Of a DNA stretch of 24,000 nt, positions 6,672-22,771 are shown piece after piece; position 1 is the first letter of the stretch; every line of letters begins with the position of its first letter. Where the stretch lies: the NCBI RefSeq assembly GCF_003231495.1, contig NZ_PQWO01000015.1:1493-25492 (forward strand), given 5' to 3'. A program made the position numbers and the translations under genes. Origin of the DNA: Acaryochloris thomasi RCC1774. Lineage in GTDB: Bacteria; Cyanobacteriota; Cyanobacteriia; Thermosynechococcales; Thermosynechococcaceae. The notes under the pieces were generated by a model that worked only from the letters and a program-made list of their open reading frames with translations, searched no databases and was not told where the DNA came from.

Positions 6672-8951
6672 TCAAGCTCTGAGGTACTTGTAGTTTTTAG
6701 TCGGCTGATTGACGCCATTTGCGACTAAGCCAATGAGGTTGAGTTTGTCCAGAATATCAACAGCATTCGATAACTCAGTGCGAGTGATTTTGTCCATTCT
6801 GCCTACCATAACCACGCCGTCACACCCAAGACCAACAGGGATAGTATCAACCAGTCCTAAAACCGGTGGGCTGTCTACAAGAATAAGATCATAACTATCT
6901 TGAAAAGCACTGATGACCTCCTTCATCCGTTCAAGGCTCAATAGCTTCACCGGGTCCGCAGCAGAGGGGCCTGCAGTTAAAACATCCAAACTCAGATCTG
7001 AAGGGGGCAGGCGACGTAAGCTCGAGGAGGCTTCGCTCTCTTCACCCAAGTCGTCCTCGACATCGTCCCAGCGCATATAAACCCATTGAGGCGCTGACTG
7101 CCACTCTTGAGCTGGAATATCGCCGGTAAGTAGCGTAGAGAGCCCGTGGTGGTTAGTCAGATTGAACACTCGATGCAGGCTGGGATTACGCAAATCAGCA
7201 TCAATAATAAGTACACGCTGATCTAGACGTGAAGCGCTGATGGCTAGGCCGAGAGACAGGGTCGATTTTCCTTCCCCCGACAAGGCTGAAGTCACCATCA
7301 GGGACTTGTAGGGAACCCCCCCCTTCAGGAGTTGAATGTTGGCATAAATGAGATCTAGAGCCTCCCTAAGCGGTTTCCACTGAAATAGATCGGGGGTCGT
7401 AAACTCTTGAATATTATTTTGATAGAACGGAAGAGTTGCAAGCGCCTCCCTTGCCTCAGCTTGAGTCAATGCAGGAAGTGTTCCCAGCAGCGGTAGAGAA
7501 ATATTATTGCCTAAGTCCTCTGAGTTGTGAACGGTATCATCCAGTGATTCGCGTACAAACGCAGCAATACTGCCCAAAAATAGTCCTGCAACTGTACCCA
7601 GCAATAAATTTCTGATCACGTTGGGACTAGTCTGTTCACCTAAAAGCGGCGCTTCTACAATTTGCCAATCAAAGCCACCCTGAGCAATTGACAATCCCAG
7701 TTCTTGACGGGCATCCAGAAGTCGTTGGAGTGTGGCTTGGCGAACCTGAACTTCGGGCTGTAGTCGGCTATATTGAGCAATCAGCTCTGGAAACTCTCGC
7801 AGCTCAGCCTCTAACTTGGCCTCGGTTTGCGCTAAGCTCTGATCTCGAGCGGCCAGCCCTGCCAGAGTATTTTGAGCTTGGGTTAGCTGGTTAGCAAGAC
7901 CGACGTCACCGCGTCCAAACTGACCTTGTGAAAGAATGGATTGATCACCGACTGCCCCTACACCATTGGGCAGTACTCGACTCTCTTCTTGCCTTAGCAA
8001 AGCTATCTGCTCTTCTCGCTGTTGCCTGAGATCTTGGAGAATCGGGTGTTCTGCTGTAAGCTGCTGCTGCTGTCGTGACAACTCTAGCTCTGTTGTCTGA
8101 ATTTGATTGAGAAGAGCTTGGTATCGCGGTGATTCACTCAAACGGGCTGTTGAACGCGCTTGCCTAGGAGATGCCTCAATCTGCTGCTGTAGTGTCTCAT
8201 AACTGGCTTTAGCTTCTCGGTATTGAGCCTTGAGAGATTCTCGCTCCTGCTTAACACTGGCCAACTGACTGGTCGTGACGCCAGCTTGCTCAGCAGGGTC
8301 AATGACATTTTCCCCCCGCCGAAAGGCCTGCAGCGCGGCTTCTGCCTCTAAAACACTTTGACGGATCTCGGGTAACTGCTCGTTGATAAAGGCAAGCCCC
8401 TTCGATAAGCGCTGTTTCTGCTGCTCCAAATTATAGACTTGGAAAACAGAGAGTAAAGTTTGCAAAATACGCTGGGTTTTAGCCGGATCGTTACTGGTGT
8501 AGTCTGCGGATAAAACATTAGTTGCAATCTGGCCCTGTCCTGTTCGGTCAGCCCCATAGACTGGAGAAACTTCGAGGGCTCCCTGTATTTCTTCGACAGT
8601 TATATCTGGATAATCTTGCTGCAGTAAATCGATGGCCTTCTGAAGCAGTTCAGAACTACGCAGAATCTGGATTTGTGTGTTCGGATCGATTTCTACATTT
8701 GGATCTGTAAACTTATCTTCTGTCGCCTGACCGCGTCCTTGCTTCGCCGTGTAATTAGACTCAATCAAGATTCTCATCGAGCTTTGATATTCAGGCTCTG
8801 ATCGAATTGTCCAAAGAATAGCTACACAGAGAACGCCCGCAAATGTTCCAAGGAACCAAACTCGGCGACGCAGGAGAATTGCTAATAAATGACCATAGCC
8901 CCAGTCTTGCTCTTTGATATTACTTTCATTCTTAATAAGAGTTCCAGTCAC
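6672..8951 (-). CDS. Polysaccharide co-polymerase / tyrosine autokinase (Wzz-Wzc, GumC-like) protein
   Basis: 759 aa. It has an N-terminal TM (FLGTFAGVLCVAILW), a long Gln/Glu-rich coiled-coil periplasmic domain and a second TM (LLLGTVAGLFLGSIAAF). The C-terminal P-loop domain carries Walker A 'SALSGEGKST', Walker A' 'VLIIDADLRNP' and Walker B 'LILVDSPP'. The start codon is GTG at 8951. Confidence 0.85.
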   Translation of the reverse strand: MTGTLIKNESNIKEQDWGYGHLLAILLRRRVWFLGTFAGVLCVAILWTIRSEPEYQSSMRILIESNYTAKQGRGQATEDKFTDPNVEIDPNTQIQILRSSELLQKAIDLLQQDYPDITVEEIQGALEVSPVYGADRTGQGQIATNVLSADYTSNDPAKTQRILQTLLSVFQVYNLEQQKQRLSKGLAFINEQLPEIRQSVLEAEAALQAFRRGENVIDPAEQAGVTTSQLASVKQERESLKAQYREAKASYETLQQQIEASPRQARSTARLSESPRYQALLNQIQTTELELSRQQQQLTAEHPILQDLRQQREEQIALLRQEESRVLPNGVGAVGDQSILSQGQFGRGDVGLANQLTQAQNTLAGLAARDQSLAQTEAKLEAELREFPELIAQYSRLQPEVQVRQATLQRLLDARQELGLSIAQGGFDWQIVEAPLLGEQTSPNVIRNLLLGTVAGLFLGSIAAFVRESLDDTVHNSEDLGNNISLPLLGTLPALTQAEAREALATLPFYQNNIQEFTTPDLFQWKPLREALDLIYANIQLLKGGVPYKSLMVTSALSGEGKSTLSLGLAISASRLDQRVLIIDADLRNPSLHRVFNLTNHHGLSTLLTGDIPAQEWQSAPQWVYMRWDDVEDDLGEESEASSSLRRLPPSDLSLDVLTAGPSAADPVKLLSLERMKEVISAFQDSYDLILVDSPPVLGLVDTIPVGLGCDGVVMVGRMDKITRTELSNAVDILDKLNLIGLVANGVNQPTKNYKYLRA

Positions 8952-8975: not shown

Positions 8976-10088
8976 TTATGCCCTAACGAGCTTTGGTGCC
9001 GCTCGTCTATCGCAAAATTGATCAATCACCTGATCTACTTTCTGAAAAAATATCGTTTCAGAGAAATTGGAAAGTGCATGTTCTTGAATACTACGATAAT
9101 CCCAGTTTATCCCTGCAGCTGAAGTAACAGCATCCTGAACAGACTCGGCAGTCTGGCTTTTGAAAAACACACCTGTCTGTCCCGGAACCTGCGTGTCTAA
9201 GACCCCACCTGCACCATAAGCAATGACAGGTGTACCGCTGGCATTCGCCTCTATTGGCACTAAGCCGTAGTCTTCTAATGCAGCAACTAGGACAGCTTGA
9301 GCGTGGGCCATCAACTCCATTCGAGTTGAATCAGACACCGGGCCAAGGAACTCAATATTAGAACCGGCTCTCGCTTTGAGCTGCATTTCTTCAGGCCCTT
9401 CGCCAATGATCTTTAGTGGCAGTTTGAGTGCATTAAAAGCATCAACAACAACATCAATTCGCTTGTAGCTCAGCAGACGAGAACAGACAAGATAGTAGTC
9501 TTGCTTCTGGCTCGAAAAGGAAAATTTACTGGCATCAATGGGATAATTTACAACTAATGCATTCTGAGAATAAATATTTTTAATTCTACTAGCCACGGTC
9601 GTTGAGTTCGCAATGTACAAATCTGGCTCTCTCGCCGAGGCAAGATCTGTACTTCTCATTGCTTGAAAGATGGGCTGAATGAGGGCATAGAATTTCTGGT
9701 ACCCTGAAAACTTTCTCAAGTATGTTTCGGTATCCCACAGAAAACGGGTGACGTTGTGACAGAAACAAATGTGTTGTGCGTCAGGGCGTTTACGTACTGA
9801 CTTCGCAAAGCTAGTGCTGCTGCTAATGAGTAAGTCATAGTCTCGCAAGTCCAAGGCTCGAAAGGCTGAATAATAGAATGGAGCCATAAGCCGAAAGTGT
9901 TTACTGGCTCCAGGGATATTTTGGAGAACTGTCGTTTGAACCGCTCGATCACCCAGTTCGATTGTCTCTACTGGGTCATAAAGCGACGTATAGATATCAG
10001 CGGTCGGAAAGTGATGGCACAGTAGCTTGAAAACTCGCTCTGCCCCCCCTCTTTGAGTTAAGTAATCGTGGATTAGTGCAATTTTCAT
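8976..10088 (-). CDS. Glycosyltransferase family 4
   Basis: The track ORF starts at a TTG (10214). The ATG at 10088 gives 'MKIALIHDYLTQRGGAERV...', a classic GT4 start. The C-terminal sugar-donor region is 'LEDYGLVPIEANASGTPVIAYGAGGVLDT'. Confidence 0.85.
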   Translation of the reverse strand: MKIALIHDYLTQRGGAERVFKLLCHHFPTADIYTSLYDPVETIELGDRAVQTTVLQNIPGASKHFRLMAPFYYSAFRALDLRDYDLLISSSTSFAKSVRKRPDAQHICFCHNVTRFLWDTETYLRKFSGYQKFYALIQPIFQAMRSTDLASAREPDLYIANSTTVASRIKNIYSQNALVVNYPIDASKFSFSSQKQDYYLVCSRLLSYKRIDVVVDAFNALKLPLKIIGEGPEEMQLKARAGSNIEFLGPVSDSTRMELMAHAQAVLVAALEDYGLVPIEANASGTPVIAYGAGGVLDTQVPGQTGVFFKSQTAESVQDAVTSAAGINWDYRSIQEHALSNFSETIFFQKVDQVIDQFCDRRAAPKLVRA

Positions 10089-10624
10089 GAACGATTCTGT
10101 GTTGGGAACTGCAAAAATGGGTGACGCGATGAAGAAAAATTGGGACAGGACGGCTGATTGACTCCATTTTAGGCGTTTTCTGACTCTAAGCTTAGCAATG
10201 AACCTTAGGGACAAACCTGGAGTCGTTCAGCCATACCGTTGCGAGCAATATGACTATCGTGGAGACAGCATAATTAAACGCACCCGCTTTTGGCTATTAG
10301 ACCTATTTGTTCATATGTCTTAACATGACTAGGGGACATTGGTTAGTATTTCAGACAACACCATGTAGCCAACCTTAATGGACGGATGGCTGTCTGCAAT
10401 GTTTCAGCACTGAGAACCACTGCCAACATAAGACCATGGCAGGTTGCTCATACTGTCACCCAGTTACTGAGGAAAAATAAGCCAATGATGGCAAGCGCTT
10501 AGAATCTTTTGCGGTAAGCCGCTTACCCCCTCATTCAGTATACTTTCCTGTTTTTTGAACCGCCACATCGTCTACGGTATGGGGCATTTATTTGAGCAGA
10601 TGTTGGATTTTGACGTTGGACTCA

Positions 10625-12439
10625 CTAAAGCTGATAGTTCTGCGCCTGTGTTCTAAACAAATGAGCATAGCTTTGATCTGCTGCCATGAGTTCAGGGTGT
10701 GTTCCCTGCTCGATGATTTCTCCCTGGCTCATGACATAGATGCGGTCGGCTAATTTGACGGTGGAGAGACGATGGCTAATAAGGATTGCGGCCTGTTGTT
10801 GAATGAGTTGACGGAATTGCTGAAAAACCTCAAATTCAGCCTTAGGATCCATGGCACTGGTGGGTTCGTCTAGGACAATAAGTTGAGACTCACGTAAAAA
10901 AGCGCGGGCAAGGGCAATTTTCTGCCACTGTCCGATGCTAAGTTCTTCACCCTGATCAAACATTTTGCCAAGGACGGTGGCGTACCCTTGGGGCAGTCTT
11001 GTGATGACGCGATCGGCACCTGAGCGGTAAGCGGCGGCCTGAACTTTGTTGTCTTCGGTAGAAATATCTATATTCCCAAGCCAAATATTATCTTGAGCAG
11101 TGAAATGATACTTTGCGTAGTCCTGAAAAATGACGCTAATTTGGCGCCTAAGCTCAAGGGTGCTAAAGTCCCGCAGGTCAATGCCATCGATGGTGATGCT
11201 GCCTTGGGTGGGATCGTAGAGGCGGCACAGTAATTTAATCAGAGTTGTTTTGCCTGAACCATTTTCGCCCACGAGGGCAACGACTTCACCCGGTTGGACT
11301 TTGAGGTTGATATTTTTCAGCGCTTGCCGCTGGGTGGTGCCGTACTGAAAGCTGACGTGGTTGAAGGTGATACCAGCTTGAAAGGGAATGGGGACTGGCT
11401 GATGCTGAGTGGGTTCTATCACCCTGGATTTGATGTCTAAAAATTCGTAGAGGTTTGCCAGAAACAGGTTGTCTTCATAGAGTCCTGAGATGCTGGTTAA
11501 GAAGCCTCTAAGGTTAGTTTGCCCTTTTTGAAGAGCCTGATAGTAGAGAACTAAATCGCCAAGCTGTAGGCTACCCTGCAAGGTTTGGTAAATGATGTAG
11601 GCAAAGATAGCGAAGACAAACAGGCCAGCACTGGCCTGGGCCCCAAAAAAAGCGGCAGAACGCTTGGATGCGATCGCAACTCGTTCTCGATAGAGCTGGC
11701 GTCTAATCTTCTGGTATCTTTGGCTGAACAGCTTCCCAAGGCCAAACAGGCGGATTTCCTTCGCAAACTGATCCGAGGTGAGCATCCATCCCAAATAACC
11801 GGATTGACGCTCAAGCTGGGTGCGACGTCGCTGCCAGCGGTAGACCACGCGAGAAAAAATGAGGCGCACACAAACCGCAGGAATAGCCGCCCCCATCAAA
11901 ACGACAATCACTCCCCAGTGAAGTGACAGCAATAGACCCGCCATAGCCGCAAGAGATAGACCATTTTGGCCGCACTGCGCCAAGTGACTCAGAATTTGTG
12001 TGGGTCGGAATGGAGCCTCTTGCTGGGCTCGCTGAAGTGTGTCGTAATAGCGAGAATTTTCGTAAAATTCGAGATCGGCCTCAATCGACTTTGCATGAAT
12101 AATACCCTGCATTGAGTCAGTGACTTGCTGTGCATGGGCCGTATTGACCAGCTCAGAAAGAGAGCTGCAGAGCGTCGTGAGTACCGTCACCAAAGCCGCT
12201 AATGCAATCAGAGGCAGAATACTCTCAAATGCAGCCTCCTTATTGGCCACCGTGAGGTTGGCGGTGACAGCATCAATCACTAGCTTCGTTAAGTAGATAG
12301 AAGCCAACGGCAGCAGCCCCTGGACAAAAATAAGGCTGATGCGGGCCACCGTCCAAGCGGGACTACTCTGCCACACCAGCTTCAACATCGGCAGCAGCCG
12401 GTTCATTCGCCGTAGCTGGCGTAAACGCGCGGCTGGCAT
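10625..12439 (-). CDS. ABC exporter, fused permease + ATPase (type I exporter; lasso 'D'-like position)
   Basis: An N-terminal roughly 6-TM domain is followed by an NBD with Walker A 'GENGSGKTT', signature variant 'LSIGQWQK', Walker B 'LIVLDEPTSAMD' and H-loop 'ILISHRL'. The ATG at 12439 ('MPAARLRQLRR...') avoids overlap with the upstream gene, whose stop is at 12459. The track start at 12496 is probably an over-extension. Confidence 0.9.
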   Translation of the reverse strand: MPAARLRQLRRMNRLLPMLKLVWQSSPAWTVARISLIFVQGLLPLASIYLTKLVIDAVTANLTVANKEAAFESILPLIALAALVTVLTTLCSSLSELVNTAHAQQVTDSMQGIIHAKSIEADLEFYENSRYYDTLQRAQQEAPFRPTQILSHLAQCGQNGLSLAAMAGLLLSLHWGVIVVLMGAAIPAVCVRLIFSRVVYRWQRRRTQLERQSGYLGWMLTSDQFAKEIRLFGLGKLFSQRYQKIRRQLYRERVAIASKRSAAFFGAQASAGLFVFAIFAYIIYQTLQGSLQLGDLVLYYQALQKGQTNLRGFLTSISGLYEDNLFLANLYEFLDIKSRVIEPTQHQPVPIPFQAGITFNHVSFQYGTTQRQALKNINLKVQPGEVVALVGENGSGKTTLIKLLCRLYDPTQGSITIDGIDLRDFSTLELRRQISVIFQDYAKYHFTAQDNIWLGNIDISTEDNKVQAAAYRSGADRVITRLPQGYATVLGKMFDQGEELSIGQWQKIALARAFLRESQLIVLDEPTSAMDPKAEFEVFQQFRQLIQQQAAILISHRLSTVKLADRIYVMSQGEIIEQGTHPELMAADQSYAHLFRTQAQNYQL

Positions 12440-12458
12440 AGACGTGCCTACGGGTGGC

Positions 12459-12911
12459 TCACAATAAATCGATGCCCAGCGACGGCATGGGGACAAATCG
12501 CTTCAGATCAGGCAATAGGCCAATGACGACAGAGCCCTCAAGCTCGATCCAAGCATGAGCCTCAAGGCAGTTATTCTGATCTTTGGCAACCCCAATACGT
12601 AAATCAGGCATATAGCCTCGGCGCGACATGAGAACCTGCGTCGTCAGCGCACGGGCAAGGCACTTGACGTGTCCCGGCATCAAATGACTGCTCACGTCCA
12701 CGGCCCAAACAATTTTATGAATCGAGCCGCAGCCAATGGAAGAGACCGGCAACGCCTGCGGGCTGTGACTTATCTTATAGAGAAACTGCTGTAGCCTCTT
12801 GAAGGGAAGTTGCCATAGCCCCAGACGCACCAACCCTAGCAGGATAAAAGCCTTTAATAGCAGCAGGCGATCTCTAGCAGGCAGGCGCACAAACTTAAGC
12901 AGTGACTTCAT
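12459..12911 (-). CDS. Transglutaminase-fold cysteine protease, lasso-peptide B2-like (McjB C-terminal-domain-like)
   Basis: Residue numbering follows the 153-aa track ORF. '...GHVKCLARALTTQVLMSRRGYMPDLRIGVAKDQNNCLEAHAWIELEGSVVIG...' matches the C...L..G....L..GV......AHAW.E..G pattern of lasso leader peptidases, with a candidate triad of Cys87, His122 and Asp138. It has an N-terminal hydrophobic helix. The ATG at 12911 (the track uses TTG at 12920) overlaps the upstream PqqD-like gene by 17 nt. Confidence 0.8.
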   Translation of the reverse strand: MKSLLKFVRLPARDRLLLLKAFILLGLVRLGLWQLPFKRLQQFLYKISHSPQALPVSSIGCGSIHKIVWAVDVSSHLMPGHVKCLARALTTQVLMSRRGYMPDLRIGVAKDQNNCLEAHAWIELEGSVVIGLLPDLKRFVPMPSLGIDLL

Positions 12912-13185
12912 CTTTAACAACTACGAGCTGCGCTTCAATCATATCGTTCAGAAGGGCAAAGACATCGGCTTCACACTGTGCCGGATCAACCTCATATTCC
13001 TGCAGAATGGCATCACAAATATCAGCCACGGCTTGAGGCTGCTGCAGCAACTTCCAAACGCTGGCCCCTACCTCATTTAGGCCGTAATACATGCCCGTTT
13101 TGAGGTTGAGAATCACAGACTCGTCCACCAACTCGGATGAGACTTGATCCGGTGCAATGACGACAATACTCTTTTTGCTAATCAC
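12895..13185 (-). CDS. PqqD-family RiPP recognition element (RRE), lasso-peptide B1-like
   Basis: 96 aa. 'ESVILNLKTGMYYGLNEVGASVWKLLQQPQAVADICDAILQEYEVDPAQCEADVFALLNDMIEAQLV' follows the PqqD-family pattern of beta-strands plus a winged helix (..lLN..tG.yy.LN..g..iW.ll....t...i...l...y.v.......Dv..fl..l...glv). The start is GTG at 13185, with an in-frame TGA two codons upstream. Confidence 0.8.
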   Translation of the reverse strand: MISKKSIVVIAPDQVSSELVDESVILNLKTGMYYGLNEVGASVWKLLQQPQAVADICDAILQEYEVDPAQCEADVFALLNDMIEAQLVVVKDEVTA

Positions 13186-13510
13186 AGGTCAGCTTAGATC
13201 GATACAACTAAAAAGACATCTTGAGATCCCTTGAACCCAACATCAACCCTGCTCTCTTTAGGCATTAGATTGATGAAGAATATTGTGGATTTCAAGCCTT
13301 CAATTTTTCACTCTTGAAATAAGTTAAGAGGAACATTGAGATTAGACAGATGCTTTAGAGACCCCCTATCACTAAGCTCTGCCGAATGTGCCTCCAAGCT
13401 AGCATAATATCCTCAGTCCTCCTACTCAAAACAGGTCGGACACATCCATCATCAAATCATGCTGTGACCATGCCCCAAAGACGGCAGAGAAAGACATAAC
13501 AGCTTGCCTT

Positions 13511-14356
13511 CTATCTCGCCCAGCGACTGCCCTTCCACAAACCGATCAGTAAAATAGCTGCGATCAACGCGCCGATATGCCACTTAACAGATTGCTTCAG
13601 CAGCCGGTTGCGCTGGCCCGTTAGTTTGATTAGCCGATTGCTTTCAAGCACCCGCTGGCGTTGAGCAAGGGCATCTGAGAACTGACCTCTTAAAGGCTCT
13701 ACATCTTCTGTCTCTGATGACGGTAGGTCGAGTTCTGCAACGCGATATCTCTGGGCAATCGCGGCCAACTGTGACGGTGTTGTTGCTTGCTGTACCAGCT
13801 CTTCCACCTGCTGTATTCGGACTAACTGCTGTTCGGTATTGATGTTGACCCGCTCTTGCGCCATTTGATCGAGCCGCAGCGTATCCGTAATACCTAAAGG
13901 AATCACCAACAGAAAGATCAGACCGGCCAACAACGTTATCCAAGACAGCAGCTTGAGAATCGGAAATTCCCATCTTGCACGGGGCTTCCGTTCACCGAAA
14001 AAGACCAGCAGCAGCCCTAGCAACGGCACCGGCACGCGCTCCACAAGTTGACCAATGGTTTGAAATTCCCAAGCTGGATCGGTAAAATAGGAGGGATAAA
14101 AGATTGCGGCCAAATCCAGCCCTACAAAGAGCAGTAGACCATAGCCGACCCAATGAAATAAGCTGGCGGCGCGAAAGACACTAAAGTAGAACTGCTGCAG
14201 TTCTCGGCTACTGTTTGGGAGACGCTTCTGCTGAAAGGGGTTACCACCCAATTTCTTCTTTGGAATCATAGACTTGAGAAGATACCTCACAGTAGTGCGG
14301 TTACGCTGGTCGTTAGTATATCCGAGCAAAAGTATCGTCGTATTGCTGGGTGACAA
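13511..14356 (-). CDS. Membrane protein with central coiled-coil segment (possibly HpsJ-family-like)
   Basis: It has three or four hydrophobic segments (LFHWVGYGLLLFVGLDLAAIF; VPVPLLGLLLVFF; LLSWITLLAGLIFLLVIPL; C-terminal IGALIAAILLIGLW). These flank a Gln/Glu-rich helical stretch (RLDQMAQERVNINTEQQLVRIQQVEELVQQ...). The track start is a TTG (14356), and ATG at 14269 is an alternative. The HpsJ resemblance is from memory of the family architecture only. Confidence 0.5.
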   Translation of the reverse strand: MSPSNTTILLLGYTNDQRNRTTVRYLLKSMIPKKKLGGNPFQQKRLPNSSRELQQFYFSVFRAASLFHWVGYGLLLFVGLDLAAIFYPSYFTDPAWEFQTIGQLVERVPVPLLGLLLVFFGERKPRARWEFPILKLLSWITLLAGLIFLLVIPLGITDTLRLDQMAQERVNINTEQQLVRIQQVEELVQQATTPSQLAAIAQRYRVAELDLPSSETEDVEPLRGQFSDALAQRQRVLESNRLIKLTGQRNRLLKQSVKWHIGALIAAILLIGLWKGSRWAR

Positions 14357-14396
14357 CGACTTGAAAACGGATAATGTGCATCCGTAAGAAGTGACT

Positions 14397-15257
14397 TCAG
14401 ACTTTTTGAGAATCAGAAGAAGTCTGATGAGCCTGACTAGGCTTCAGAACGGTTAGGCACAGGCTACCAAATAGGAGGACTGCGATACAAACAAATATCA
14501 ATGCTCCCCCCTGACTATGCCAATATTCAAAAGCAGCATTGTCTGGATAGGTTGAGAGAATCGCTAATAGGGCAACTCGGATAGCATTAACGAAAAAGCC
14601 CAAAGCCACTGCAACGATTGGCAGCAGAATTTTTTGGCTTTTGCGGGTGGGGAACAGGACAAGAAACAGGACTGAAACACCCAGCATATAAAGCATCAGA
14701 TTGAGTCCCGAACAGCTCGGAACAACTTCAACCCCCCCATCGGGTAACCGGATAATATTGTTATCGACCAGTGCGACCTGAGCGCCGGTATACCAGAGCA
14801 AAAAGGTTGAGAAAGCTGCGGTGAACGGGGCTAAAAGATTGGGAATCACAGCAAGGGCCAACCGAGGCAGTCCCAGAAAGAAAAAGATAATCAGCTCTTG
14901 GCGGTACTGTCCCAGACCTCGTAAGCCGGAGGCCAAGGTTCCAACGCTAATAAAGGCCAACAGTGGGAAAAAACCGACAAACTTTTCACCCGGAGTTCCC
15001 ACACTTTTTGCCAATAGCAAGCCCAAAAGCGCGATACTCACCAGAATTGAAATCAGGTCGCTATCGAGCCGTAGCTGCTCTCGCTTATCTGAGAGGGTGG
15101 ACCAGGCAGCAGCAATAAAGGTGATGCTGAGGGCTAGGTGAGAGTAAGTCTCCGCACTCACATTAAGGTGCAGAAAAATCGCGGCTAAGGCTGCTGAAAT
15201 AAGGATCAGGCCACGGACGGGGACTGTATAAGATTTTCCAAGGGTAGGATTAATCAT
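14397..15257 (-). CDS. Exosortase family protein (cyanoexosortase CrtA/CrtB type)
   Basis: 286 aa, polytopic. The three exosortase catalytic signatures appear in order: Cys in 'VEVVPSCSGLNLMLYM', Arg in 'FFVNAIRVALLAIL' and His in 'FEYWHSQGGALIF'. The start is ATG at 15257. Confidence 0.85.
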   Translation of the reverse strand: MINPTLGKSYTVPVRGLILISAALAAIFLHLNVSAETYSHLALSITFIAAAWSTLSDKREQLRLDSDLISILVSIALLGLLLAKSVGTPGEKFVGFFPLLAFISVGTLASGLRGLGQYRQELIIFFFLGLPRLALAVIPNLLAPFTAAFSTFLLWYTGAQVALVDNNIIRLPDGGVEVVPSCSGLNLMLYMLGVSVLFLVLFPTRKSQKILLPIVAVALGFFVNAIRVALLAILSTYPDNAAFEYWHSQGGALIFVCIAVLLFGSLCLTVLKPSQAHQTSSDSQKV

Positions 15258-15414
15258 AAAGATAAATTCTCGACTGCAGCAGAGCGGCGCTTTTTGCTTA
15301 AGCCATGGTCTGAAGATGGTTTAGATCTAAAGGGTGAGATAGCTTGGGTTCCATATCACCGCTGAGGGAACGGTGTAGCGTGACCCGGATGCCGTATGGA
15401 TTTAGGTTACTAGT

Positions 15415-16338
15415 TTAGCGATCATTGGTAATATCCTGAGCGATCTGGGCTGCAATTCCGGGCAAACATGCCAAGGTCTTGGGGCGTCTGAGCTGGAAAA
15501 GGGGACAGGCTTGGGCAAGCGCCGCACATTGAGAAAAATGCGCGCTATCTCGAGCAGGCAAGATGACTTTGAGACCAGCAAATCGCAGGAGTTCGATGAC
15601 GGCTTTTTGCGGTGATAGAGGGGTGATGCTCAACTGTGGGTCGGTGCTGAGAATAAAAATACGGTCGAGTTTTTGGGGTTCACAGACGGGTGGATCGATT
15701 CTGTAGAGATGTTTTTCAGACAGCAAGGGCTGTGAAGGCGCTTTGATCTTGAGTGCTTGGGCCATCTGAGGATTGAGCTTGATAGGAGTACCTGCGATCG
15801 CAACTCTGATTGGCGTAGATAAATCAATCACCGTCAGATCATCGGTGAGCAGTAGGTGGCCTTGGGCATGGAGCGCTGCCGCCATCGAGGACTTACCCTC
15901 ACCAGAATCGGCAAGAAAGACCACGGCTTTACCTGCGATACTGACGGCGCTGCCGTGGAGCACCAATCGCCCCCTTTGATAGCAGATCAGGGCCATCACA
16001 ATGCCGGTAATCGCTTGGCGAATCCCTTCTGGCGAGGCGTCGGGCACTGGGATAACGGTGACCTGAATACCGCTCTGCAGCAAAAAAACGCCCACACCTT
16101 TGAGATACACCACGGCCGAATCGGGTGTTACCTGAAAGCCCAGGGGCTGCGGCAGCAGTTCCTCAGGAATGTGATCGCGGTAATCTCCTTCTTGGAGCCG
16201 AATCGTAACGGGGTTCGCTTCAGGTATCTCGGCTGTGGAGAGTTCAGGAAAAGGGATATCAGAAAGAAGCGTCAACCCAAAGGCCGTGTGGACGTGCTGT
16301 TGAGCTGGCAATGGGTGCGTCAAATTGCGGGGTGACAC
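15415..16338 (-). CDS. HPr kinase/phosphorylase C-terminal-domain-like P-loop protein (HprK-related kinase)
   Basis: 'LVLHGSAVSIAGKAVVFLADSGEGKSSMAAALHAQGHLLLTDDLTVI' matches the HprK C-terminal core (HG..v...G.gvl..G.SG.GKS..a..L...G..lv.DD). GTG at 16338 is the only available start. It is the first gene of the co-directional string after ligA. Confidence 0.75.
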   Translation of the reverse strand: MSPRNLTHPLPAQQHVHTAFGLTLLSDIPFPELSTAEIPEANPVTIRLQEGDYRDHIPEELLPQPLGFQVTPDSAVVYLKGVGVFLLQSGIQVTVIPVPDASPEGIRQAITGIVMALICYQRGRLVLHGSAVSIAGKAVVFLADSGEGKSSMAAALHAQGHLLLTDDLTVIDLSTPIRVAIAGTPIKLNPQMAQALKIKAPSQPLLSEKHLYRIDPPVCEPQKLDRIFILSTDPQLSITPLSPQKAVIELLRFAGLKVILPARDSAHFSQCAALAQACPLFQLRRPKTLACLPGIAAQIAQDITNDR

Positions 16339-19049: not shown

Positions 19050-19059
19050 AGTGTCACTA
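19034..19059 (+). other. Perfect 10-bp inverted repeat / stem-loop (TAGTGACACT-cgataa-AGTGTCACTA)
   Basis: I checked the base pairing position by position: 19034-19043 pairs with 19059-19050, leaving a 6-nt loop. Confidence 0.6.
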
Positions 19060-19118
19060 CCTCGACAGACACCGGGAAGCAGCAGGGTATTGTTTAGCTC
19101 GTGAGGAGTGATTCAAAC

Positions 19119-19168
19119 AAAAAGCCCCGGGAGTCGAAACAAGGAAAGACGTCCTAGGGCTTTTTTTT
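19119..19168 (+). terminator. Rho-independent terminator (potentially bidirectional)
   Basis: The stem GCCC(C)GGGAG.../...GTCC(TA)GGGC pairs 19124-19135 with 19148-19160, with one mismatch, one G-U pair and one bulge. It is followed by T8 (19161-19168) and preceded by an A5 tract. It lies between divergently oriented genes, so it ends an otherwise unannotated plus-strand transcript. Confidence 0.6.
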
Positions 19169-19225
19169 ATTGGTGCATTTAGAGACCTCACCGGTCTTCG
19201 CCGAAATCTCATCCTTTCTGTACCC

Positions 19226-19660
19226 ATGAGCCTCGTTCCTGAAGTTCGGCTTGCAAATGAAACCGACAGCGTCTCTATTGCAAATCTCCTTAGCACTTTG
19301 GGATACCCCTGTTCAGATACGGCTGTCCGTCGTCGGTTGGCAAAGCTTGTGGCAGGCAGTTCAGTTACGTTCGTCGCGGTTTCGGACTCTCGCATTATTG
19401 GTTTAGTCTCTGCACACAAAGTTCCTCTGCTGCATGAGGATGGTTGTGCCGCAATCATGACCTCATTGGTCGTTGACCAAAGGTCCCGCAGCAAAGGCGT
19501 TGGACGCTGCTTAGTCAACAATATTATGAGTTGGGCAGGAAAAGCAGATTGCCTAAAACTGACCGTAACAAGTTCCCTTTGTCGTGATCAGGCTCATTCA
19601 TTCTATCGACACATAGGGTTTGACCAAAACGGTTACCGCTTCACAATGAGGCTTGAATAG
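19226..19660 (+). CDS. GNAT family N-acetyltransferase
   Basis: 144 aa. The acetyl-CoA-binding motif A is 'LVVDQRSRSKGVGRCLV' (Q/R-x-x-G-x-G/A). The C-terminal 'AHSFYRHIGF' is typical of motif B. Confidence 0.85.
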   Translation: MSLVPEVRLANETDSVSIANLLSTLGYPCSDTAVRRRLAKLVAGSSVTFVAVSDSRIIGLVSAHKVPLLHEDGCAAIMTSLVVDQRSRSKGVGRCLVNNIMSWAGKADCLKLTVTSSLCRDQAHSFYRHIGFDQNGYRFTMRLE

Positions 19661-21336: not shown

Positions 21337-22074
21337 TTATATTCTTTGCTCTGTTTTTTGCAGCGGAGAGAGGGGGCGATACCACCTTGCAAGATGGTGA
21401 GGACTGACCCCCAGATAGTAGAGCGATAGCAAAATCCAGTTCCTGAGGGTGCAGAACAAGATCCCTTCTTGTTCCCAGCGCCGTGCCGATACGGAGACGC
21501 GATCGCAAATCAAAGCAATCGGCAGCCGCTGGCGTTTGAGCCGTCGCATCAGATCTACGTCTTCCAGAATCGGGAAATCAGGGTAGCCCCCCAGAGCATG
21601 AAAGGTCGTACGGGCGATAAAGATCGCCTGATCACCGTAAGGAAGACGCGTCAGGCGCGTGCGCAAACTGGCCCCACGACTGATCCACCCCAAAATCCAG
21701 CGAGGAGAATCGATAGAAAAATCGAAGGCTCCAGCGACCGCCTTCGTCTTTTCGATGGTGTATACAATTTTCTGCAGTGCTTGGGATGGCAGCCTTGTAT
21801 CAGCATGGAGAAATAGTAGAATGCGGCCCTGGGCACATTCTGCTCCAGCGTTCATTTGATGACCTCGTCCAGCCTTAGCCACAACACCCACAGTACCCTG
21901 CGGAAGATATTGCAGCGTCGATCCTTGAGGATCACCATCAACCACAATGACTTCATAGGCGATCGAGCCTGCGATTGCGGCGATCTGCTCTAAGGTACGT
22001 GCGATGGTGACCCCCTCATGGAGAACCGGAACAATCACAGAAATATCAGGTGCGACAACGCTCGAAGATGTCAT
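21337..22074 (-). CDS. Glycosyltransferase family 2 (TIGR04283-like)
   Basis: 'ISVIVPVLHEG', 'VIVVDGDPQGST' and 'LLFLHADTRLP' are GT2 (GT-A) signatures. The 245-aa size and the pairing with a DUF2064 gene fit the TIGR04283 family. Confidence 0.8.
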   Translation of the reverse strand: MTSSSVVAPDISVIVPVLHEGVTIARTLEQIAAIAGSIAYEVIVVDGDPQGSTLQYLPQGTVGVVAKAGRGHQMNAGAECAQGRILLFLHADTRLPSQALQKIVYTIEKTKAVAGAFDFSIDSPRWILGWISRGASLRTRLTRLPYGDQAIFIARTTFHALGGYPDFPILEDVDLMRRLKRQRLPIALICDRVSVSARRWEQEGILFCTLRNWILLSLYYLGVSPHHLARWYRPLSPLQKTEQRI

Positions 22075-22771
22075 GCTGATGTCGACTTAGATACGCCATG
22101 CTCTGGGACTGCTGGCCCTGCTGATTCTGCTGGTAGAACCGCTGCAGTTCATTTAGGGTATCGATATCATACCAAGTGGGCAGCTCATAGATAGGCCGAG
22201 CATGGTGTTCAAGGATTCTTAGGGTTTGTGATCGCACCTTCTCCGTGCTCCACTCAATCCCCTGAAACACCTGCGGGCAATAATTTTCAGCAGTGAAACC
22301 AAGGGCATAGTAGCCCCCATCCTCACTGGGGCCTAAAACCACCTGCCCCGCCGCTAGCTGCTCAAGCGCTGTCTGCAGGTAGTTCAGGGGCAGATCGGGA
22401 CTATCGCTGCCAACGATTAAAGCCTGCTCATATCCCAACTCAAAGCAGCGGTTGAAAGCATGGGACATGCGATCGCCCAACGCCTTCCCCTGCTGCGGAT
22501 AATATTGCTGCCCCTTCAACCACTCAGCAATCTGGAGCCGAGCGTCATCGGGGGCAAAAAAGATCAGGGGTATTACAGGGAGCTGACAAAGGGTTACCAG
22601 CACGTCCTGGGCAAAGTAGGTATATAGCTCAGCCGCGCGTTCGTTGCCAATCGTTTTTCCTAAACGCGTTTTCACTTTGCCTGGGTAGGGCGCTTTGACA
22701 AACATCAGTACGCAGGCTTTTCCCTGCACTGGCAAGCTAGCGCTTATGCTCTGTGTCGAAAGATCGTTCAT
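22046..22771 (-). CDS. DUF2064 / TIGR04282-like nucleotidyl- or glycosyl-transferase
   Basis: The N-terminal 'VLMFVKAPYPGKVKTRL' is the hallmark DUF2064 motif, with 'LIVGSDSPDLP' and 'GPSEDGGYYALG' further on. Its 3' end overlaps the GT2 start by 29 nt. Confidence 0.8.
   Translation of the reverse strand: MNDLSTQSISASLPVQGKACVLMFVKAPYPGKVKTRLGKTIGNERAAELYTYFAQDVLVTLCQLPVIPLIFFAPDDARLQIAEWLKGQQYYPQQGKALGDRMSHAFNRCFELGYEQALIVGSDSPDLPLNYLQTALEQLAAGQVVLGPSEDGGYYALGFTAENYCPQVFQGIEWSTEKVRSQTLRILEHHARPIYELPTWYDIDTLNELQRFYQQNQQGQQSQSMAYLSRHQHDIFERCRT

Follow-up and report, generated by a model that had tools for sequence, protein, structure and literature searches.

Retention under purifying selection of lasso-type leader recognition, cleavage and export genes after loss of the cyclase and precursor genes in the Acaryochloris thomasi clade

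What can a lasso-type gene set do if the gene for ring formation is missing from it? This question is raised by a 24,000-nt stretch of the Acaryochloris thomasi RCC1774 genome (hereafter the window; all coordinates refer to it unless another locus is named), which encodes a PqqD-family recognition element for RiPPs (peptides made by the ribosome and modified after translation), a B2 leader peptidase and an ATP-binding cassette (ABC) exporter, together with an HprK-like protein, a cyanoexosortase and an HpsJ-like protein. The original prediction for this locus had listed these six co-directional genes on the minus strand and had seen two ways to read them: as a pathway for a linear, leader-processed (phospho)peptide, or as a leader-dependent step tied to exosortase and exopolysaccharide (EPS) biology. 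Open reading frame (ORF) calls reproduced the coordinates, the overlap and the gaps given for all six genes, and identities were assigned from Pfam, NCBIfam and TIGRFAM profile scores. Lasso peptides have been termed 'underexplored in Cyanobacteria' (PMC9967302); in the literature we found no characterized cyanobacterial lasso product and nothing linking exosortase, PqqD and HprK. As judged from comparison with related loci, PqqD, B2 and ABC are what is left of a paeninodin-like, i.e. kinase-containing, cyanobacterial lasso cluster of a kind already modelled by NCBIfam.

The remnant comprises three closely spaced genes. PqqD (12895..13185, 96 aa), the RiPP recognition element (RRE) or lasso B1 protein, scored 79.9 bits with PF05402 (cut-off 23.4) and 75.7 bits with NF033536 (cut-off 80); the PqqD proteins of cyclase-bearing relatives reach 75.7-78.4 bits with the latter model and are all under its cut-off as well. 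The lasso B2 leader peptidase (12459..12911, 150 aa), a transglutaminase-fold cysteine protease, scored 113.9 bits with NF033537 (cut-off 33) and 78.7 bits with PF13471; its sequence matches a protein of A. thomasi RCC1774 with 100% identity. The RRE and B2 assignments of the original prediction are thus supported by profile searches, and the catalytic set that it had described as apparently intact is conserved in the alignment, Cys84 and His119 being invariant and Asp135 nearly so. The third gene (10625..12439) encodes an MsbA-like exporter, a lasso D-type half transporter without a peptidase domain, with 120.7 bits for ABC_tran and 27.7 bits for ABC_membrane, which just misses the cut-off of 28. 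It has 604 aa if translated from the ATG at 12439 and 623 aa from a TTG, its N-terminus aligns with those of the homologues in the related loci L004 and L005, and it is orthologous to the cassette exporters of other loci (phmmer, 720-860 bits). The PqqD and B2 genes overlap by 17 nt (12895-12911), 19 nt separate B2 from ABC (12440-12458), and 325 nt lie between the HpsJ-like gene and PqqD.

The absence of a cyclase, on which the original prediction rested, was borne out within the 24 kb. The only ORFs of at least 500 aa encode a Wzc-like protein (759 aa), the ABC exporter and LigA (676 aa), and tblastn with the cyclases of two relatives gave nothing better than E ~0.9 in the window. The precursor gene is gone as well, which had escaped notice in the first reading. 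A precursor hidden Markov model (HMM) and a leader HMM built from 79 precursors, run against six-frame translations of the window, L005 and L006, found no precursor with a YxxPxL leader (best E 0.11). None of the small ORFs in the 325-nt, 410-nt and 157-nt gaps is precursor-like, and the insertions and deletions in these gaps relative to the related loci are not multiples of three. From the set that defines a lasso cluster (A, B1/B2 and C), the window therefore contains the RRE and B2, and it lacks the cyclase and the precursor.

How such a locus may have arisen becomes apparent from its relatives. A survey of cyanobacterial B2 proteins returned 450 relatives in species-representative genomes, from which 80 loci were taken (L009-L088); ORFs were called in all of them and classified against seed proteins, and 77 loci were informative. 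The canonical cyanobacterial order is PqqD-B2-cyclase-precursor (one to five copies)-HprK-like-ABC, and in many cases an NTP_transf_5 gene comes next; a cyclase is present in 69 of the 77 informative species-level loci. The cyclases of the relatives scored 820-1084 bits with NF033535 (cut-off 525) and the small ORFs 46-67 bits with NF033528 "lasso_cyano" (cut-off 33). The related contig L004, whose B2 is 65% identical to that of A. thomasi, is syntenic with the window from the DUF2064 and GT2 genes via LigA to the Wzc and methyltransferase genes, in the order LigA-HprKa-CrtA-HpsJ-PqqD-B2-cyclase (657 aa)-precursor (57 aa)-HprKb (300 aa)-ABC-GT4-Wzc; its cyclase scored 820 bits with NF033535 and its precursor 45.8 bits with NF033528. 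The same order CrtA-HpsJ-PqqD-B2-cyclase is found in L007/L008, L009 and L010, as far as the contigs extend. Between B2 and ABC lies a cyclase in L004, L007, L009 and L010, and in L004 and L007 a precursor too. The view that RRE, B2 and exporter are the accessory set of a split-B lasso cluster was well founded, and the cluster is of the kinase type.

In blastn the window is collinear with L004 except for L004 10434-14034 (~3.6 kb), which has no counterpart in the window. In its place stands the 19-nt spacer at 12440..12458 (minus strand; B2 TGA, 19 nt, ABC ATG), i.e. the junction at which the relatives carry ~3.6 kb with cyclase, precursor and HprKb. The cyclase-less layout with a homologous 19-nt junction also occurs in L005/L006 (B2 83% identical), L092 (91%) and L093 (87%). 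As four diverged lineages share one junction, a single old deletion in their common ancestor evidently removed the cyclase, the precursor and HprKb together, and no remnants of these three genes were detected at the junction. With the precursor and the second kinase lost along with the cyclase, the locus is left without a substrate in cis. The absence of the cyclase thus stands, but the locus is a deletion derivative of a canonical lasso cluster rather than a designed cyclase-less pathway.

Are the surviving genes still in use? We calculated pairwise ratios of non-synonymous to synonymous substitutions (dN/dS, Nei-Gojobori) among the four deletion-bearing lineages, with dS from 0.15 to >1; values from pairs with dS >1 are rough, and the unsaturated pair of window and L092 agrees with them. 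The ratios were 0.00-0.05 for PqqD, 0.06-0.23 for B2, 0.04-0.05 for ABC and 0.10-0.13 for HprKa, compared to 0.06-0.19 for the neighbouring CrtA and HpsJ genes (CrtA, 0.07-0.12) and 0.06 for LigA (window-L005 pair only). All ORFs are intact in the four lineages, without internal stops. Furthermore, the amino acid divergence of PqqD, B2 and ABC in the lineage without a cyclase does not outpace that between pairs that have one, and the RRE core (ESVILNLKTGMYYGLNEVGAS.W.LLQQP) is identical in the two groups, as are the model scores. By these comparisons the survivors are under strong purifying selection and were kept long after the loss of cyclase and precursor. A recent deletion or recent decay is rejected by the shared junction and the dN/dS values.

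A conserved non-coding motif precedes PqqD. The sequence TGCTAGCTTGGAGGC (13390..13404, minus strand), which contains the palindrome GCTAGC, is invariant in five aligned relatives and in front of PqqD in every member of the CrtA-linked clade. Each of L004-L010 has one copy in the corresponding position and 81 other loci have none, and the window matches the motif only once, with none expected by chance. Between TGCTAGCTTGGAGGC and the PqqD start, the cyclase-less lineages contain ~190 nt of extra conserved non-coding sequence. The motif evidently denotes a distinct conserved element in front of the lasso-type genes and may serve PqqD-B2-ABC as promoter or operator. For the conserved region 5' of PqqD, alignment folding gave a weak consensus RNA structure (-18.7 kcal/mol, 256 columns) and no Rfam match, and promoter and terminator scans gave counts at or near shuffled expectation.

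We consider it somewhat more probable than all other outcomes taken together that the remnant is a module which, without a cyclase, recognizes and removes the leader of a peptide encoded at another site and exports the product. In such a module PqqD would bind the leader of a trans-encoded peptide, expected to be of the YxxPxL type because the RRE surface is unchanged; B2 would cut the leader off, and the ABC pump would export the linear core peptide, which HprKa might phosphorylate. As there is no substrate in cis, its gene would lie outside the 24 kb. Among the readings offered by the original prediction, the linear (phospho)peptide is thus the most plausible one, although no precursor was found in cis. 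It is made plausible by two facts, namely that cyclase-less sister cassettes keep precursors of their own and that linear peptides are made by comparable, experimentally studied clusters in Bacillota.

Two kinds of such sister cassettes with precursors were seen. In L040 (Symploca sp. SIO2C1; 10669-12041 of that locus) four tandem precursors have the lasso-type leader MLKTWNTPELTVQGSVEELTQ and an (RGG)n core; the order is PqqD-B2, four precursors, HprK-like, an FA_hydroxylase-family gene, ABC and, on a weak seed match, an NTP_transf_5-like gene; a cyclase is absent from the surrounding 10 kb. The L027 type was found in five loci (L027, L048, L073, L078, L084), belonging to four Nostocales genomes and one uncultured cyanobacterium. 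It comprises (L027, 4053-13511) PqqD, two to three precursors (MKKNYSEPELKAHGKISGLTQQVGGSGGFGTTT..., Thr-rich cores), HprK-like, two GT2-TPR genes, an NAD-epimerase/dehydratase, a GT14 gene, B2, ABC and NTP_transf_5; the GT14 'Core-2/I-branching' ("Branch") enzyme is encoded on the opposite strand. The L027 type appears to be a linear O-glycopeptide pathway, perhaps for a mucin-like product. L049 (9712-13535) from Cyanobacteria bacterium P01_A01_bin.123 is a second orphan set, PqqD-B2-HprK-like-ABC; within 10 kb it has neither a cyclase nor an ORF with a leader. It is surrounded by unrelated genes (MFS transporter, P-type ATPase, PLP decarboxylase) and not by an EPS locus. In Bacillota, linear polyphosphorylated peptides (LPP) are made by clusters consisting of RRE, HprK kinase, SpI-like protease, MsbA-like pump and NTP-transferase, without a cyclase (PMC13381572, Nat Commun 2026). 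The LPP product is linear, its clusters are often located within capsular polysaccharide loci, they have precursor genes of their own with a YxxPx(L/V)-type leader, and the precursor motif is YxxPxVLxHQxIxFETxxS (PMC13381572).

Some features of the precursors and kinases of the surveyed cassettes may be mentioned here. In Moorena (L013, L050, L059, L075) as well as in L015, L018 and L046, a single lasso cassette can hold as many as five diverged precursor genes in tandem, and the Moorena loci L013 and L059 have a second HprK-like gene behind the ABC exporter. Inspected by eye, the precursors of L001, L004, L007, L015, L024, L028 and others have a leader Thr, a Gly about five residues further on and then an Asp 6-7 residues beyond it (e.g., ITRAF followed by GSSAAED). 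This Gly...Asp spacing would fit a 7- or 8-residue macrolactam, in which case the conserved leader Thr would be farther from the cleavage site than its usual penultimate position.

The kinase-like protein deserves separate discussion. HprKa (15415..16338, minus strand, 307 aa) is an HprK-like P-loop protein whose motifs DSGEGKS (P-loop), HG and TDD are invariant in the family alignment. Its family profile matches the HprK/P structures 1jb1, 2qmh and 1ko7 of the PDB at E 7e-5, the match being confined to the P-loop region, and the protein is 30% identical to HprKb, the in-cassette kinase of L004 (tblastn, 1e-29). The HprK-like assignment made at the outset has independent support from motifs, profile match and likeness to HprKb, but it is weak, the score with Hpr_kinase_C (27.6 bits) being below the gathering cut-off of 33.3. 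HprKa is an older paralogue of the lasso-cassette kinase and a predicted kinase. That it is the cassette kinase moved to a new position is rejected, since L004 and L009 have HprKa beside a full cassette and HprKa forms a clade of its own. A metagenome scan with the alignment as query returned only three short contigs of 43-45% identity, which gave no context bearing on the exosortase.

Several points weigh against the trans-acting module. Neither the 24 kb nor the contigs syntenic with it yielded a precursor with a lasso leader, and the proposed substrate is hypothetical. HprKa is parted from PqqD by two unrelated genes, and the role given to it here is a guess. For split-B systems B2 activity without a cyclase is known from in vitro work, and for the B2 of the window it is a prediction. 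The dN/dS values tell that the genes are used, not what they are used for. Finally, the database searches described below give best matches only, need shared 5-residue words and see small ORFs only if these have been called.

These points lead to the question of what else the conserved genes could be doing. An ordinary lasso pathway that has merely been split, with cyclase and precursor(s) moved elsewhere in the A. thomasi genome and a threaded lasso peptide made in trans, would fit the conservation of RRE and B2, which is just that seen in relatives with a cyclase. In cyanobacteria the precursors of RiPPs often lie dispersed over the genome, as is known for prochlorosins, and the A. thomasi genome beyond the 24 kb was seen only through database protein searches. 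However, when the nearest cyclase was compared with a collection of 5.8 billion proteins, no protein of A. thomasi or of the metagenome-assembled genome (MAG) P01_A01_bin.17 was among the 120 best matches, all of which are at least 44% identical, although both genomes have named proteins in the database; an orthologous cyclase should be ~60% identical, and among the matches listed only Thermosynechococcaceae MAGs and L004 reach this value. Likewise, the precursor profile search returned 19 proteins, none of them from the A. thomasi clade, A. thomasi appears only once among the B2 matches listed, and the clean removal of three adjacent genes looks like loss and not like transposition. We regard a split pathway as quite improbable. 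Slightly less so, yet still unlikely, is that the locus is an immunity-only or 'cheater' remnant, in which the ABC exporter was kept to pump out the lasso peptides of relatives while PqqD and B2 are passengers of the same operon. Exporters of the lasso D type provide self-immunity (McjD), bacteriocin systems commonly have orphan immunity genes, relatives with a cyclase turn up together in similar sample series, and the dN/dS of ABC is very low (0.04-0.05). Yet PqqD is even more constrained (0-0.05), B2 has kept its catalytic residues, and hitch-hikers should decay over dS >1; moreover, no activity is known for these cyanobacterial peptides. A non-functional relic, decaying after the loss of the core genes, is suggested at first sight by the disappearance of cyclase, precursor and one kinase and by the missing substrate in cis. 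It is very unlikely because of the low dN/dS (0-0.23, with dS up to >1, and ORFs intact in four lineages), the unaccelerated amino acid divergence, the unchanged RRE core and B2 residues, and the retained upstream motif.

The remaining alternative concerns the genes between HprKa and PqqD. CrtA (14397..15257, minus strand, 286 aa) is a cyanoexosortase A (TIGR03763, 274.1 bits, cut-off 150; PF09721, 134.5 bits). The adjacent gene at 13511..14356 (minus strand), described initially as encoding a coiled-coil membrane protein, was correctly located, and its product can now be identified as an HpsJ-like protein of the CrtA-associated type (NF050013, 252.3 bits, cut-off 140); its true start is likely near 14269, giving ~252 aa compared to 250-254 aa in the relatives. 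Both partners of a cyanoexosortase A system, CrtA and the HpsJ-like protein, are thus present with scores above their cut-offs. In each of the clade's eight lineages CrtA-HpsJ is flanked by HprKa and PqqD, with or without a cyclase (L007 lacks HprKa), whereas CrtA is found nearby in only two of the 77 species-level lasso loci, both from Thermosynechococcaceae MAGs. The joining of the exosortase to the RRE, B2 and kinase genes is accordingly not peculiar to this genome, but it is confined to one clade; the adjacency appears stable and clade-specific, and mechanistic coupling is not supported. Nor does the adjacency always go with absence of the cyclase, as had been asked, for cyclase-bearing clade members have it too. 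RRE, B2, ABC and HprKa might nevertheless have been co-opted into exosortase and EPS biology, acting on a component of the CrtA/HpsJ/Wzc surface-polymer pathway, e.g. in the processing or export of a PEP-CTERM-related or EPS-associated peptide, and both the general idea and this example seem to us improbable. They draw on the persistence of CrtA-HpsJ amid lasso-type genes in eight lineages despite saturated synonymous divergence, on the occurrence of a Wzc-like gene within 10 kb of 28 of the 77 cyanobacterial lasso cassettes, in several arrangements, and on the lasso and LPP clusters of Bacillota, which lie within capsule loci. But CrtA is not adjacent in 75 of the 77 species-level loci, a clade-specific conserved motif stands between HpsJ and PqqD, and the adjacency shared by cyclase-bearing members leaves no correlation with cyclase loss. 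Furthermore, the RRE core, being unchanged, speaks for a leader of the lasso type and not for a new substrate, and no candidate substrate was found.

The six-gene set is flanked by LigA upstream and by GT4 glycosyltransferases, a methyltransferase and the Wzc-like gene downstream. The EPS block starts with a GT4 glycosyltransferase gene (8976..10214, minus strand; Glycos_transf_1, 73.2 bits), which is syntenic in L004 and L005. The next gene, at 6672..8951 (minus strand), encodes a Wzc-like polysaccharide co-polymerase/tyrosine autokinase with matches to Wzz, GNVR (21.3 bits, below the Pfam cut-off), CbiA and AAA_31 and with 109.3 bits for TIGR01007 (cut-off 108). Relative to the lasso cassettes, the Wzc-like gene is divergent and upstream in Nostocales, where a conserved 106-aa protein is encoded between Wzc and PqqD, and co-directional and downstream in the Acaryochloris clade. 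This association of Wzc with cyanobacterial lasso genes parallels the location of Bacillota lasso and LPP clusters in capsule loci. Just 3' of the ABC gene, a non-coding element of ~50 nt (TGTGGCGGTTCAAAA...AGTATACTGAATGAGGGGG; ~10520-10567, core 10553..10567, minus strand) is conserved in the window, L004, L005, L006 and L092; the exact 14-mer of its core occurs only in these four among the relatives' loci, and the element is not a conserved ORF and has no Rfam match. Elsewhere in the window, Rfam detected a Cyano-1 small RNA at 19095-19169 (plus strand; 50.9 bits, gathering score 41), inside and antisense to a 154-aa ORF (19057-19521) that has no family match and is probably spurious. At 21337-22771 (minus strand) two genes overlap, one for DUF2064 and one that matches TIGR04283 'arsenosugar biosynthesis glycosyltransferase' with 244 bits (cut-off 182), and the pair is syntenic in L004 and L005.

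If the favoured module for a trans-encoded peptide is indeed active, it would mean that the lasso leader recognition and cleavage pair can work, and be selected, without ring formation, and A. thomasi would possess a cyanobacterial, B2-based counterpart of the linear phosphopeptides of Bacillota. A broader reading, which we put forward tentatively and think possible rather than probable, is that cyanobacteria have more than once converted the lasso toolkit of B1, B2, kinase and exporter to linear-peptide pathways that need no cyclase, namely in the A. thomasi clade, in L040 and in the L027 type. The A. thomasi toolkit may then process a leader-bearing peptide encoded in trans, which perhaps acts at the cell surface, and linear RiPPs that depend on B2 would form a hitherto undescribed class. 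The clade in any case offers a natural "minus-cyclase" genotype beside "plus-cyclase" sisters, which should help to ask what these peptides do and why their genes are so often located in polysaccharide loci. It also calls for caution in annotation, as neither the name "Lasso peptide biosynthesis B2 protein" nor a lasso call of the antiSMASH style means that a member of this clade makes a lasso product.

How does the locus compare with known systems? A pairing of an HprK-like P-loop protein with a PqqD-family protein is also characteristic of the HPr-rel-A system (HprK-related kinase A, TIGR04352, and PqqD-family chaperone, TIGR04353), a TIGRFAM cassette that had been mentioned in the original prediction. 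The window does not belong to it, as HprKa scored 39.6 bits with TIGR04352, compared to a cut-off of 200, and the PqqD protein had no match to TIGR04353 at E <= 0.01. With the LPP clusters of Bacillota (PMC13381572) the window shares the lack of a cyclase and the combination of RRE, HprK-like protein and MsbA-like pump, but there is no signal-peptidase domain among the ORFs scanned, no NTP_transf_5 and no precursor, so that it falls outside the LPP definition. The paeninodin-type clusters of Bacillota, with split B1/B2, a precursor-phosphorylating HprK-like kinase, a nucleotidyltransferase and an ABC exporter, have the accessory set in common with it: the window has the RRE, B2, a predicted HprK-like kinase and the MsbA-like exporter, and the best model for its PqqD is the Bacillus-type NF033536. 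Unlike them, it lacks cyclase, precursor and NTP-transferase, and it comes from a different phylum. The cyanobacterial lasso clusters of NCBIfam (NF033528 lasso_cyano, NF033535 lass_lactam_cya, NF033537, NF033536), a family that is itself predicted only, differ from the window in having a cyclase, a precursor and an in-cassette kinase, and the A. thomasi clade has no NTP_transf_5 after ABC. They share with it orthologous PqqD, B2 and ABC proteins, the gene order, translational coupling and the RRE core, and syntenic relatives contain the full set. What is known about this locus is thus its derivation, by reduction, from a predicted-only cluster family, and what is noteworthy is that its genes were retained under selection after the cyclase and the precursor had been lost.

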